From an uncultured Atopobium sp. (GTDB lineage: Bacteria > Actinomycetota > Coriobacteriia > Coriobacteriales > Atopobiaceae), in NCBI GenBank assembly GCA_963507085.1, contig CAUORV010000001.1, positions 1 to 32,823 of the forward strand: a DNA stretch of 32,823 nucleotides, in the 5' to 3' direction. Position 1 is the stretch's first letter. The number at the start of each line of letters is the position of its first letter. The position numbers and the translations under genes are program-made. The notes below the pieces were generated by a model. That model saw nothing but the letters and a program-made list of their open reading frames with translations. It ran no database searches and had not been told where the DNA came from. Of this stretch, positions 15,101-22,223 are shown piece by piece.

Positions 15101-15218
15101 GCCTAATTTCTGCAAAGAATCTGTAAATTCTGCCTGATAACAGCAAAGAATCTGTGGATTTGCCTGATTTTGTTAAAGAATCGGTGGCTCAAATACAGAT
15201 TCTTTGCACTTTTTAGGC
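15101..15218. repeat. 118-bp cassette type A, copy 1 (3 direct ~31-bp units + 1 inverted unit; MITE/REP-like)
   Basis: GCCT units at 15101, 15132 and 15162, each with AAAGAATC(T/G)GT. Terminal inverted unit TACAGATTCTTTGCACTTTTTAGGC. 15145-15218 is identical to 22150-22223. Confidence 0.9.
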
Positions 15219-15275
15219 AGGCCTTTCGTGACGTACCTTTTGGATCCAGCGTGGTTTCATGGGCGCTTTCATCGA

Positions 15276-15395
15276 GCCTGATTTTCTCGCCAAGTCTGAA
15301 CGATTTGCCGGAAAAGTGCGCCAAGTCTGAGTGTTTTGCCGGTTTTTCTCGCTATGTCTGAGCAAATTTACTCAGATATGATGCACTTTTCAGGC
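15276..15395. repeat. 120-bp cassette type B, copy 1 (3 direct 31-bp units + 1 inverted unit)
   Basis: GCC(T/G)G units at 15276, 15307 and 15338, each with GTCTGA. Inverted unit CTCAGATATGATGCACTTTTCAGGC. Homologous to 21929-22048. Confidence 0.88.
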
Positions 15396-15509
15396 TGACC
15401 ATACTTCATCAGGCAGCACATTTGCACCAAGTTCACCCCTACAAAAGGGAAGCGCTCCTATGAGCCGCATCGGGCAGTTTGTGGAGAAAAATTTCTCAGA
15501 AATTGAGAC

Positions 15510-15538
15510 TAGACCAAAGCCAGAAAAGTCTATAGAAT
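15510..15538 (+). promoter_or_regulatory. Putative sigma70 promoter for tRNA-Thr(TGT)
   Basis: TAGACC-17 nt-TAGAAT ending 16 nt before the tRNA. Confidence 0.55.
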
Positions 15539-15554
15539 ATCCTCTGCACTTGAT

Positions 15555-15630
15555 GCCGCTATAGCTCAGCTGGTAGAGCAACTGACTTGTAATCAGTAGG
15601 TCCCGGGTTCGAAGCCTGGTGGCGGCACCA
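15555..15630 (+). tRNA. tRNA-Thr (anticodon TGT)
   Basis: GCCGCTA acceptor stem, TAGCTCAGCTGGTAGAGC D arm, CTGA-cTtgtAA-TCAG anticodon arm, TTCGA T loop, encoded CCA; 76 nt. Confidence 0.96.
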
Positions 15631-15803
15631 CTTGAATTTTCAGCCAGGCATTGCCTGGCTTTTTTCGTGCGAATTTTAGGGCATTCGCGACGTATCGCGT
15701 ATGGCTCTTACAGACAACCGCTAAAGCCCGTGTCCATTTGGCGAGAAAATCGCTTGGAATTGTGGAAAAATTTGATAAGATACGCCCGGTTGGGTGGATT
15801 ACG

Positions 15804-15832
15804 TTGACAAGAATTTTATTCAATCGTAATAT
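15804..15832 (+). promoter_or_regulatory. Putative sigma70 promoter for the tRNA cluster and tuf
   Basis: TTGACA-17 nt-TAATAT. Confidence 0.65.
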
Positions 15833-15938
15833 TTTCCCGCTTACGAGGTAATTGGAAGTTCAACTAGACTTCCTGCGTGCGTTAAATCGCAAGGTACAGC
15901 GCACACAATTACTTCAAGAGTGCTTGAAAACGGTATTT

Positions 15939-16022
15939 GGGGATATGGCACAGCGGCAACTGCGGCGGACTGTAAATCCGCTCCCTCTGGGTTCCTTGGT
16001 TCGAGTCCAAGTATCCCCACCA
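15939..16022 (+). tRNA. tRNA-Tyr (anticodon GTA)
   Basis: GGGGATA...TATCCCC-ACCA; GCGGA-CTGTAAA-TCCGC anticodon arm; long variable arm; 84 nt. Confidence 0.95.
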
Positions 16023-16023
16023 C

Positions 16024-16099
16024 GCCCGTGTAGCTCAGTAGGTAGAGCACTTCGTTGGTAACGAAGAGGTCACCGGTTCAAATCCGGTCGCGGGCTCCA
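16024..16099 (+). tRNA. tRNA-Thr (anticodon GGT)
   Basis: GCCCGTG...CGCGGGC-TCCA; CTTCG-TTGGTAA-CGAAG; 76 nt. Confidence 0.95.
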
Positions 16100-16118
16100 T
16101 TTTTCAAGCGGCATTTAT

Positions 16119-16195
16119 GCCGGCGTAGCTCAGCTGGTTAGAGCACACGGCTCATACCCGTGACGTCACTGGTTCGAATCCAGTCGCCGGTACCA
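16119..16195 (+). tRNA. tRNA-Met (anticodon CAT), elongator type
   Basis: GCCGGCG...CGCCGGT-ACCA; CACGG-CTCATAC-CCGTG. Lacks initiator hallmarks (C1:A72 mismatch, three consecutive G-C pairs). Ile2 identity is not fully excluded. Confidence 0.88.
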
Positions 16196-16301
16196 GACTC
16201 TTTACGGCGTACATGTCCTAGACATTTGCGCCGTTGAGTATAAACAGACGTTTTTTCACCACGGTCTAGCCCGAGGGTTAGTTCCAGAAGGAGGATTGGC
16301 A

Positions 16302-20309: not shown

Positions 20310-20339
20310 GCTTTACGCTTAGAAGTACCTAGCACGTTT

Positions 20340-20372
20340 AATCCGGTATCTGCTTACAGGTACCGGATTTTT
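20340..20372 (+). terminator. Intrinsic terminator after rplA
   Basis: AATCCGGTA...TACCGGATT followed by a T run. Confidence 0.75.
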
Positions 20373-20519
20373 CTTGAAGCGTGCATGCGGCTTGAAGCGC
20401 GTGGTCGGCATAGGCGGTTTGCGACTAAGGTGCGATTGTGCCGCGTTTGAGTTGGAGCTGCAGCTCGACCGCCTATCTCGTCAAATTTTTGTGAAGAGAA
20501 AGAAATTGTACGCTCAACC

Positions 20520-20548
20520 TTGACTCGCGTTGATTTTTGCTGCACAAT
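20520..20548 (+). promoter_or_regulatory. Putative promoter for rplJL
   Basis: TTGACT-17 nt-CACAAT just upstream of the L10 leader. Confidence 0.55.
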
Positions 20549-20587
20549 ATCCAACGCAAGACAGACGTCTTGTAGTTGCACGTTCGC

Positions 20588-20703
20588 TGCCAAAGACAGC
20601 CGGCGCCTTGAATCCAAGGCTTAATGGGAATTCCCGCCTGCCGAGGTGGTCTTGAGATTAGTACATCCAGACCCCGCTTTGGTTGCCAAAGTGGGGTCTT
20701 TTC
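20588..20703 (+). promoter_or_regulatory. L10 ribosomal protein leader with downstream attenuator hairpin
   Basis: CCAAAGACAGCCGG...TTAA...CCTGCCGAGG core matches the L10(L12)4 leader pattern, followed by AGACCCCGCTTTGG...CCAAAGTGGGGTCT-TTT; upstream of rplJ. Confidence 0.75.
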
Positions 20704-20762
20704 ATGTGAGGGCCGCACCTGTTGGCGCTCGTGCCCGAGACATGATAAAGGAGGTGTACTAC

Positions 20763-21284
20763 ATGCCAGCTCAGTCTAAACTTGATTTGCTCGAGAAGGT
20801 TTCCGCTTCTCTCGACAACTCCAAGGGCCTGTTTGTTATCGACTATCGTGGTCTCTCCGTAAAGGAGACTCAGGAGCTTCGCCGCGCACTTACCGCAGCA
20901 GGCGCTCACATGAAGGTCTATAAGAACAACATCGTCAAGATTGCTCTTAAGAACGCTGGTATGCCAGAGATTGACGAGATGCTCGCCGGTACCTGCGCAT
21001 ACGTTTTCTATGAGAATGATCCTGTCGAGGCCGCTAAGGTCATCAAGGATCAGGCCAAGAAGCTCAAGAAAGTTGAGTTCATTGGTGGTATCGCTGATGG
21101 TCAGGCACTTACTGCTGACGAGGCAAAGGCTTACGCAGATCTTCCTTCTCGCGAGGAGCTCATTGCAAAGCTTGTCTTCGTTGTTGCAAGCCCACTTACC
21201 GGTATTGCACAGGTTTGCGCTGGTCCAGCTCGTGGACTCGCAACCGCTCTTTCTGCAGTCGCAGATCAGAAGAACGCTGCATAA
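20763..21284 (+). CDS. rplJ: 50S ribosomal protein L10
   Basis: IDYRGLSV, KVYKNN, LPSREELIAKL; ATG 20763 after AAGGAGG. Confidence 0.96.
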   Translation: MPAQSKLDLLEKVSASLDNSKGLFVIDYRGLSVKETQELRRALTAAGAHMKVYKNNIVKIALKNAGMPEIDEMLAGTCAYVFYENDPVEAAKVIKDQAKKLKKVEFIGGIADGQALTADEAKAYADLPSREELIAKLVFVVASPLTGIAQVCAGPARGLATALSAVADQKNAA

Positions 21285-21416
21285 GCAACGTTTTGTTGTA
21301 CCCGCGCATTGGCGCAAACCGCGTGAAAGTGTAGACGCACTTAAACGCACACATACAAGCCGGGCTTTTGCCCAGATGCAGTACAAAGGCTGCATCGTTT
21401 AAAAAGGAGAATTGAC

Positions 21417-21797
21417 ATGGCTGTCACTAAAGATGAGATCATTGAGGCCCTTAAAGAGATGCCAGCACTCGAGCTTTCTGAGCTCGTTCACGAGCTTGAG
21501 GACGTCTTTGGCGTTTCCGCTGCTGCTCCTGTAGCTGTCGCTGCTGCTCCTGCAGCTGGTGGCGCTGCTGAGGAGGCAGAGGAGAAGACCAACTTTGACG
21601 TTGTTCTCGAGGGCTTCGGCGACAACAAGATCGGCGTCATCAAGGTTGTCCGTGCTCTTACCAACCTTGGCCTCAAGGAGGCAAAGGAGGTCGTCGAGGG
21701 TGCTCCTAAGGCAGTCCTCGAGGGCGCTAAGAAGGAGGACGCTGAGGCTGCTAAGGCTCAGCTCGAGGAGGCTGGCGCTACCGTCACCCTTAAGTAA
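21417..21797 (+). CDS. rplL: 50S ribosomal protein L7/L12
   Basis: [10 protein letters not shown] hinge, [24 protein letters not shown]. Confidence 0.98.
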
Positions 21798-21820
21798 GTC
21801 CATCCTACAAAGCTTACTGG

Positions 21821-21851
21821 AGAGGTCAGACTTCGGTCTGGCCTCTTTTTT
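21821..21851 (+). terminator. Intrinsic terminator after rplL
   Basis: AGAGGTCAGAC-TTCG-GTCTGGCCTCT followed by a T run (UUCG tetraloop). Confidence 0.85.
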
Positions 21852-21928
21852 ATTTGCCTGGCGAGAAACCCGGCGTGCCTTTTGCCGCAGCCTGAAAAAG
21901 CGCGTCAAGCTTAGGCGCTTTTGCTGCA

Positions 21929-22048
21929 GCCTGAAAAGTGCATCAAGTCTGAGCTGTTTGCCGGATTTTCTCGCCATGTCTGAGCGATTTGCCTGTTTTT
22001 CTCGCCTTGTCTGAGTACTTTTGCTCAGACTTGGTGTCCATTTCAGGC
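21929..22048. repeat. 120-bp cassette type B, copy 2
   Basis: Units at 21929, 21960 and 21991 (31-bp period) and inverted unit GCTCAGACTTGGTGTCCATTTCAGGC. An extra degenerate unit begins at 21890. Confidence 0.88.
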
Positions 22049-22105
22049 TCATAAATCCAGCGCGATTACTCAAGCTTCCTGCGTGACTTGCCCTAGTTTT
22101 CTCGC

Positions 22106-22223
22106 GCCTGATTTCCTCAAAGAATCTGTAACTTTTGCCTAAAATTGCAAAAGAATCTGTGGATTTGCCTGATTTTGTTAAAGAATCGGTGGCTCAAATA
22201 CAGATTCTTTGCACTTTTTAGGC
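22106..22223. repeat. 118-bp cassette type A, copy 2
   Basis: Units at 22106, 22137 and 22167 plus inverted unit; the last 74 bp are identical to copy 1. Confidence 0.9.

Follow-up and report, generated by a model that had tools for sequence, protein, structure and literature searches.

Sister repeat cassettes of the Lancefieldella parvula group and a single-copy nuclease-like gene located between inverted copies of them

A contig of 32,823 nucleotides from an uncultured Atopobium sp. (assembly GCA_963507085.1, contig CAUORV010000001.1), analysed over its whole length and referred to below as the window, carries two kinds of short intergenic repeat cassettes, A and B, which stand in the order A-B upstream of a tRNA-Thr gene (15555..15630, + strand) and in the order B-A between rplL and rpoB. 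What kind of elements are they, how is the difference in order to be understood, and with which protein, if any, are they associated? The window is the entire contig C1 of a 1.31-Mb draft genome (G000; 174 contigs, 79% complete), and the comparison of this genome with its relatives suggests that the cassettes are probably gene-less copies of the iterated terminal inverted repeats of two sister elements that bear a nuclease-like gene. They would constitute a system resembling that of the hairpin-forming doublets of repetitive extragenic palindromic (REP) sequences and their REP-associated tyrosine transposases (REPIN-RAYT), but based on a different nuclease.

Cassette anatomy and the alternating array

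A cassette has a length of 118–120 bp and is composed of three direct units of ~31 bp followed by a fourth, inverted unit, with a hairpin between unit 4 and unit 3. The units of type A read GCCTGATTTY-N-AAAGAATCTGT or GCCTAAAA-N-AAAGAATCTGT, those of type B read GCC(T/G)G(A/T)TTTTCTCGCCA(A/T)GTCTGAG or GCCGGAAAAGTGC-N-CCA(A/T)GTCTGAG, and the T-tract and A-tract versions take turns along each cassette. At the first window locus, cassette A (15101..15218) comprises direct units at about 15101-15131, 15132-15161 and 15162-15186, a loop, and the inverted unit 4 at 15194-15218; these limits are based on the inverted arms detected in the repeat search, on the alignment with the 16 other A copies of G000 and on the hairpin pairing. 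It is followed by the 57-bp linker L1 (15219..15275) and by cassette B (15276..15395; direct units 15276-15306, 15307-15337 and 15338-15362, inverted unit 4 at 15371-15395). The second locus starts with a degenerate extra B-like unit (21890..21928) and continues with cassette B (21929..22048; three direct units and an inverted unit at 22024-22048), the 57-bp linker L2 (22049..22105) and cassette A (22106..22223), the final 74 nt of which are identical (100%) to those of the first A copy. All these features, including the four cassettes, are on the + strand.

The repeat search paired the A copies with each other at 90% (121 nt) and the B copies at 76% (106 nt). The 14-mer GCCTRAAAAGTGCA, common to the cassettes, has 5 matches in the window at up to 2 mismatches (mean of 0.50 in shuffled sequences, with 0 of 100 shuffles reaching 5). 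The full-length, in-register alignment of A with the first B copy has 80–81 identical positions among 125–126 columns (z = 8–9, 300 shuffles); A and B are therefore diverged sister elements. This agrees with a previous sequence-only reading of the window, which had proposed sister elements with a 3+1 architecture and a 57-bp spacing at both loci. The B sequence that it had quoted as the terminal unit does not occupy that place at the second locus, where it is the first direct unit (21929-21953), the inverted terminal unit (22024-22048) being diverged.

BLAST searches with the four cassettes against G000 revealed 21 substantial loci and 3 short fragments. Seven loci have the composition A-L1-B (gaps of 50–63 bp) and seven B-L2-A (gaps of 35–57 bp); a further locus, at a contig end, consists of a partial B unit and A, four contain A alone and two, both at contig ends, B alone. 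A and B point the same way in each of the 14 composites, and their gaps measure 35–63 bp overall, which indicates a constraint on both spacing and orientation. The L1 linker of the window is similar to those of the six other A-L1-B loci, and its L2 linker shares the start and the end with the 35–48-bp L2 linkers of the other B-L2-A loci. Thus, the two 57-bp spacers of the window are indeed unlike each other, as had been noted, but each of them belongs to a conserved linker family. Two loci of the related genome G055 display the complete series A-L1-B-L2-A, and one of them corresponds to two contig ends of G000. The window therefore shows a single alternating, co-oriented array in two of its registers, and not the swap of two elements that had been suggested. 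The blocks have sharp ends, since the similarity of non-orthologous copies from other genomes to the first window locus is limited to 15096-15396. Many contigs terminate in cassettes, and assemblies from short reads of this common commensal of the human mouth and gut are broken by them.

Could the cassettes function as transcribed RNA structures, i.e. as stabilisers of 3' untranslated regions, attenuators or small RNAs, as proposed for some REP sequences and bacterial interspersed mosaic elements (BIMEs)? Predicted single-strand folds are strong (z = −3.8 to −6.0, with unit 4 paired to unit 3 or unit 1), the 11-bp core stems are intact in nearly all of the 17 A and 12 B copies in G000, a double compensatory change (C103) being seen once, G-T mismatches exceed A-C mismatches on the + strand (8 vs 3 in A, 15 vs 7 in B), and at 11 of 17 loci, according to crude calls of open reading frames (ORFs), the element has the orientation of the upstream ORF (12 if rplL is counted at the second window locus). 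Nevertheless, we regard an RNA function as very unlikely: the two strands fold about equally well, as is the case for any inverted DNA repeat, the orientation bias is weak, Rfam covariance models gave no match to the cassettes at E up to 1, a scan found no promoter-like or canonical terminator-like sites inside them, and such a function would leave unexplained the gene bracketed by inverted cassettes that is described below. The possibility that the hairpins are intrinsic terminators was ruled out by the same scan, in which no G+C-rich stem followed by a run of T was found inside the cassettes. Terminator-like sites do adjoin them, and one such hairpin (21819..21848, + strand) lies 3' of rplL and upstream of the B-A block. 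At five loci of G000 (C2:6040-6190, C6:26370-26520, C56:3230-3385, C149:1430-1580 and C154:1-100) the cassette blocks are preceded by a conserved ~100-nt module, in which GGGTTTCTCGCCAGG follows a hairpin of terminator-like appearance, CCCGGTATCCA...TGGATACCGGGTTTCTTG. Several G000 loci sit between convergent genes and others after genes, hence a position upstream of strong promoters, which had been suggested by the two window loci, is not a general property of the family.

A nuclease-like gene between inverted cassettes

On contig C4 of G000, a conserved ORF is located between two inverted A cassettes, whose hairpin ends point inward. Its product has a conserved core of 336 aa that starts at MEFYLSHT, and the whole gene-bearing element, of ~1.7 kb, lies between the genes for an rrf2-like regulator and a class II fructose-bisphosphate aldolase (both named from their translations). 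In G055 this site is occupied by a diverged homologue between inverted B cassettes, and in G024 it is empty, with 76 bp between the flank matches. Searches of 68 genomes of the genus revealed a match to the gene in 52 (E up to 1e-25), with 0 or 1 copy in each genome of the L. parvula group. The A-type gene was found in 24 genomes (87–100% identity to G000, one partial) and the B-type gene in 25 (47–62% identity to G000, two partial or split), and none has both; the two forms are alternatives at one chromosomal site, present in a single copy. The ORF is intact in all matches, and the A-type gene is under purifying selection (median dN/dS of 0.14 for 199 pairs among 21 sequences). A contiguous spacer without the gene was found in five genomes that are 99% complete (G024, G022, G052, G006 and G070), and in G022 and G052 another repeat family is present at the same point.

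The gene and the cassettes correspond type for type. A cassettes adjoin the A-type gene in all 23 loci that were retrieved (on both sides in 21, the other 2 being cut by contig ends), inverted B cassettes flank the B-type gene in 7 of 7, and all 30 loci lie between the rrf2-like and aldolase genes. The inverted homology extends over 201/197 bp (74%) around the A-type gene and over 131 bp (82%) around the B-type gene, with a range of 112–201 bp across all 6 loci measured, and a diverged stretch of ~33 bp is present on both sides of the gene-bearing site. In two distant species, G066 and G057, homologues with 30–36% identity were found. One of them is flanked by inverted repeats of another type, C (155 bp, 95% identical, and 141 bp, 89%), based on a different iterated unit and containing TTTTGGCGAGAAAACC, and another by repeats of type D (112–145 bp). 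Both types are dispersed in these genomes, type C at at least 13 places in G066 and ~11 in G057, type D at ~15 or more in each; neither was found in G000.

Can this association be due to the insertion site alone? The cassettes could be ordinary elements of the type of miniature inverted-repeat transposable elements (MITEs), moved by an unrelated transposase that was lost or remained unassembled, with the nuclease-like gene as a frequent neighbour at an insertion hotspot. The spacer between the rrf2-like and aldolase genes is a hotspot, as illustrated by the other repeat family in G022 and G052, cassette blocks cluster by a GCGAGAA(A/G) motif that occurs at the gene site too, and the numbers of cassettes are independent of the gene type. 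A hotspot predicts, however, neither the match of types nor the symmetry that is observed in four protein subfamilies, each with its own cassette type inverted on both sides; moreover, G000 yielded no longer element with A or B ends, and no Y1 transposase was found in 4 of the 5 genomes searched. We therefore consider an origin of this kind improbable.

The A-type and B-type proteins are ~51% identical overall, 41% in residues 1–180 and 64% in residues 181–336, and the lower identity of the N-terminal half would be compatible with a changed DNA specificity of this part. Their homologues in sequence searches are unnamed or 'hypothetical' proteins of Lancefieldella and Collinsella. In the predicted model (mean predicted local distance difference test, pLDDT, 74.9; predicted template-modelling score, pTM, 0.77), residues 183–308 were matched by a wide VIA-align search to the domain of the I-Bth0305I homing endonuclease (3r3p; Z 9.4, root-mean-square deviation 2.6, 95 aligned residues), to NGO0050 (3hrl; Z 8.9) and to Vsr (1cw0; Z 7.9), and the sequence profile also matched 3r3p (E = 6e-4); Foldseek against the PDB gave no match at E up to 0.001. 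The C-terminal half is thus predicted to exhibit the Vsr/DUF559-type PD-(D/E)XK nuclease fold. Pfam searches gave weak matches to DUF2726, DUF559 and MTES_1575, but no match to a transposase was obtained from Pfam or NCBIfam, and none to PF01797 (Y1/RAYT). NCBIfam otherwise returned nothing convincing, and for four family members there was no convincing match in PADLOC or PHROGs, the best being a methyl-directed restriction enzyme model of PADLOC (E = 0.0075) and a PHROG of unknown function (E = 0.042). Residues E188, D233, E252, H258 and D267 are invariant in 20 sequences and may be catalytic.

PF01797 is absent from G000, G055, G024 and G066. In the fifth genome searched, G022, a single, unrelated IS200-like Y1 transposase ORF (G022:C13:47103-47459, 165 aa, E = 7e-42) was found ~1.3 kb from rplL. 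G000 has two paralogues of the nuclease-like gene, at C42:1022-2060 and C8:13254-14360 (27% and 23% identical), without flanking cassettes. The former is located in an A+T-rich stretch after a dihydrofolate-reductase-like gene, and the latter is adjoined by members of a separate inverted-repeat family, GGTAAAAAA-N-CGTTTAGTTGGA and its complement (C8:12960-13120), which occurs also at 760-783 and 915-938 of the window and at C140:2590-2640.

Distribution, differences between relatives and an abundant motif

In one draw of genomes, the A-L1-B block had matches in 24 of 24 genomes of the same genus and in none of 16 from elsewhere in the order; when genomes were drawn from the whole family, the B-L2-A block matched 8 of 10 genomes of the genus (not G044 and G057) and none of 140 genomes of 37 other genera. 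The exact scan of the species collection for the A hairpin yielded 80 loci, 74 of which come from records of Atopobium sp., Atopobiaceae or Lancefieldella parvula, plus one L. rimae; the other 6, from unrelated taxa, have nothing further in common with G000. The cassette family is therefore restricted to the L. parvula group, a single sub-clade of Lancefieldella. The majority of the A-hairpin loci occupy the same positions as those of G000, with flanks that are 75–95% identical, and these orthologous positions imply that most cassette copies are older than the divergence of the species of the group. Three weak matches among contigs from sequencing runs were fragments of other A copies and of the rpoB leader.

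Differences between relatives are observed at the window loci themselves. Among 25 complete rplL-rpoB spacers (15 further loci are cut by contig ends), 23 have B-L2-A, including two in which B is truncated, and they differ in their extra B-like units, with one or two partial B units added in other genomes. The spacers of G024 (364 bp) and G044 (424 bp) have no cassettes. In the window, two 16-bp direct repeats CCTGGCGAGAAACCCG, one to the left of the B-A block (21857..21872, +) and the other to its right (22267..22282, +), bracket a stretch of 410 bp; G024 lacks this stretch and retains one copy of the motif. Upstream of tRNA-Thr, G055 has A-L1-B and G024 only A, and the difference is bounded by the common terminal TTTT(C/A)AGGC. 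The same difference between A and A-L1-B recurs at the orthologues of two other G000 loci, i.e. at three sites in all. In the L. rimae record, the orthologue of a B-L2-A locus of G000 holds just a 58-bp hairpin made of A units 3 and 4. Several candidates for clean empty sites proved to be replaced by other sequence (e.g. L122 compared with C140). The number of units in the cassettes differs between strains and could serve for typing.

The conservation of most copies at orthologous sites would also be expected if the cassettes were arrays of operators, or of architectural sites bound by a DNA-binding protein of the host (which may be the nuclease-like protein in a regulatory role), fixed for the use of the host near promoters and gene ends and not spread by mobility. 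The ~31-bp spacing of the units corresponds to roughly three helical turns, and conservation of the core extends to every unit, even to units 1 and 2, which are outside the hairpin. Upstream of tRNA-Thr, the distant species G057, G044 and G066 (L171-L173) have arrays of a different iterated motif, CCACCACTAAAC and its complement, direct and inverted, at the same place. The best match of the N-terminal half of the protein is AbiEi, an autorepressor that binds inverted repeats (residues 1–180 of the model resemble its residues 67–195, Z 7.2). On the other hand, the blocks have sharp ends and the linkers are copied together with the cassettes, the contexts are unrelated and include spacers between convergent genes, close relatives differ in presence and absence, and copy number and type change wholesale between the sub-clades of the genus, which looks like the expansion of a repeat family rather than a conserved regulon. 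On balance, a role limited to fixed binding sites seems unlikely.

The cassettes are usually found near another abundant sequence. When the 10-mers of G000 are ranked by over-representation, the first ten are all overlapping variants of TGGCGAGAA(A/G), a motif that CC(C) usually follows. Its 9-mer core, GGCGAGAA(A/G), has 588 copies in 1.31 Mb, 301 on the + and 287 on the − strand, without strand skew, and 54 of 100 copies of the 12-mer GGCGAGAAACCC fall into the ~12% of the genome outside crude ORFs. The sequence TGGCGAGAAACC has 89–104 copies in three genomes of the L. parvula group, and 0–9 in 78 other genomes of the family, among them G044 of the same genus with 2, in a sample drawn without G066 and G057 and with a control, the reversed pattern, at 0–2 per strand. 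The motif TGGCGAGAA(A/G) is specific to the L. parvula group. In the window it is found at 7343-7364, 21857-21878 and 22267-22288 (+) and at 19519-19530 (−). Within 100 bp of cassette-block ends, GCGAGAA(A/G) is present at 20 of 34, compared with 11.8% of random points outside ORFs, and the core of the motif is present, on the minus strand, in the T-tract units of B. It could represent a target site, the outer end of the element or a feature independent of both. A function similar to Chi or KOPS was ruled out by the equal strand counts and the lack of correlation with gene strand or GC skew; its density and strand symmetry are reminiscent of DNA uptake sequences.

Other features of these regions were noted in passing. 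A further small repeat family, with ATTATGTGT... and ...GGATCCAAAAG-like units, occurs at the same hotspots beside CGAGAAGG, namely in the 1189-bp rplL-rpoB spacer of G052 (L051), in the rrf2-aldolase spacers of G052 and G022 (L212 and L213) and at C140:2700-2800 of G000. The window contains a ribosomal protein L10 leader (RF00557) at 20572-20711, upstream of rplJ (46.7 bits, slightly more than the gathering score of 44), and at 14346-14399, at the junction of ORFs 13310-14347 and 14402-14980, four overlapping copies of a repeat with a 9-bp period, AAGCCCAGGAAGCGTAAG...

Proposed origin and comparison with known systems

What, then, could be the relationship between the gene and the gene-less cassettes? 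We propose that the ~31-bp units serve as multiple binding sites for the 336-aa protein of the matching type, and that its nuclease activity, in trans, drove or still drives the spread of cassettes by copying to further sites, a role like the one proposed for RAYTs with respect to REPINs. Each genome has ~20 intergenic sites with gene-less cassettes, which stand alone or form A-L1-B-L2-A arrays, usually near TGGCGAGAA(A/G). Anatomy of the cassettes and arrays, their distribution, the bracketing of the gene by cassettes of its own type, the predicted fold of the protein and the selection on its gene are direct results of the analysis. It is the type-for-type bracketing in four protein subfamilies, together with the gene-less dispersal, the single copy, the vertical inheritance and the purifying selection, that leads us to regard the cassettes as gene-less derivatives, and the insertions or deletions between relatives (the B-A block missing from rplL-rpoB of G024, and A instead of A-L1-B at three sites) and the sharp common ends of the gene-less copies speak for this reading as well.

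Several observations speak against this proposal. Binding, cleavage and movement by the protein are inferred, and the gene has been found at one site only, with no sign of transposition of the gene-bearing unit. Cassettes of the A and the B type are present together in each genome, but the gene in one type at most, and the counts of A hairpin arms are similar in genomes with the A-type gene (16–27), with the B-type gene (8–25) and without a gene (9–21; genomes at least 95% complete). Since the 30 bracketed loci go back to two haplotypes, they amount to two independent cases, or about four with types C and D. The orthology of most copies across species suggests little current activity. No regular target-site duplication was found: the 16-bp repeat brackets the rplL-rpoB block, and none is common at the other G000 loci. 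Gene-less arrays are direct, A followed by B, whereas the gene-bearing form has two inverted cassettes of the same type, a mismatch that the model leaves unexplained. The resemblance of residues 1–180 to AbiEi is moderate, at a Z score in the range that the tool calls common, and no DNA-binding domain was identified in the protein. Long flanking inverted repeats were found neither at the two G000 paralogues, nor at three other paralogues of G066 and G057 (Lancefieldella), nor at 19 loci of another genus, two of which have repeats of 25–29 bp on both sides. The protein family is also common in the order, with matches in 191 of 251 genomes (E up to 1e-20), often in several copies; for this family the bracketed gene would be a first functional lead.

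Going a step further, and tentatively, one may envisage an undescribed selfish or domesticated class of elements, in which a Vsr/DUF559-type PD-(D/E)XK nuclease with iterated inverted ends of 110–200 bp acts in trans on gene-less arrays that insert at or beside the clade-specific 12-mer, with the A and B specificities as alternatives at one locus. That the 12-mer has itself been spread, to ~100 exact copies per genome (~600 for the 9-mer core), is conceivable and an equally tentative part of this picture. A search of the literature, with most subscription journals outside its coverage, found no description of these repeats or of a repeat-flanked DUF559/AbiEi-type protein, which agrees with the suggestion that the system is undescribed; the species, but none of these repeats, is mentioned in the available text of a paper on complete genomes from saliva (PMC9600527).

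REP sequences with their RAYTs have so far been the principal case in which repeat populations persist for long, are inherited vertically and depend on an enzyme encoded in a single copy. If an unrelated nuclease formed the basis of a parallel system, such an arrangement could arise more than once; if the proposal is true, it would be a second, mechanistically independent invention of the REPIN-RAYT lifestyle, and it would suggest a function for part of a large uncharacterised protein family present in most Coriobacteriales genomes searched. The A-type and B-type proteins and the A and B cassettes offer a directly testable specificity pair.

Among known nucleases, the closest to residues 183–308 in fold are Vsr, DUF559 and I-Bth0305I-type enzymes. 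The bracketed protein differs from them by its N-terminal half of 180 residues, which is of uncertain kind, and by the location of its gene outside any intron or intein, between long iterated inverted repeats. Correia and BOX-type elements are examples of MITEs, which derive from transposons with terminal inverted repeats. Like MITEs, the gene-less copies share sequence with the inverted ends of a gene-bearing element, have sharp ends, are intergenic and break short-read assemblies. Unlike MITEs, the gene-less cassette unit is usually one end (solo) or a direct A-B array and not a pair of inverted ends, no regular target duplication was found, and the partner protein belongs to no known transposase family and has its gene at one site only.

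BIMEs of enterobacteria are mosaics of REP units and fixed linkers, in which the palindromic REPs alternate in orientation. The description of the window cassettes as BIME-like is justified as far as the architecture is concerned, i.e. a modular intergenic mosaic with two diverged, alternating unit types and two conserved linker classes. It does not extend to the units, which are mostly direct and not palindromic REPs of alternating orientation, A and B being always co-oriented (14 of 14 composites of G000), nor to the enzyme, a RAYT being absent from 4 of the 5 genomes searched. A co-distributed protein, for which the sequence-only reading had proposed to look, was found in the form of the single-copy nuclease-like gene between inverted cassettes of its own type; it is neither a RAYT nor, according to Pfam and NCBIfam, a match to any known transposase.

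According to a study of RAYTs (PMC3337134), their genes are present in single copy, flanked by their own type of repeat, and mainly vertically inherited, with dispersed intergenic repeats. The system described here shares with them the dispersed short intergenic repeats, the single-copy gene flanked by the same repeats, the link between gene subtype and repeat type and the mainly vertical inheritance. It differs in the protein, which is not of the HUH/Y1 type (PF01797) but has a predicted Vsr-like PD-(D/E)XK fold; in the repeat, a four-unit cassette of 118–120 bp in tens of copies instead of a palindrome doublet of 20–40 bp in hundreds (just the 58-bp two-unit hairpin in locus L100 resembles a REP doublet); and in the two alternative gene types that share one locus. 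By analogy, the cassettes and their gene appear to form a REPIN-RAYT-like arrangement with a different kind of enzyme, and their resemblance to BIMEs is architectural only.

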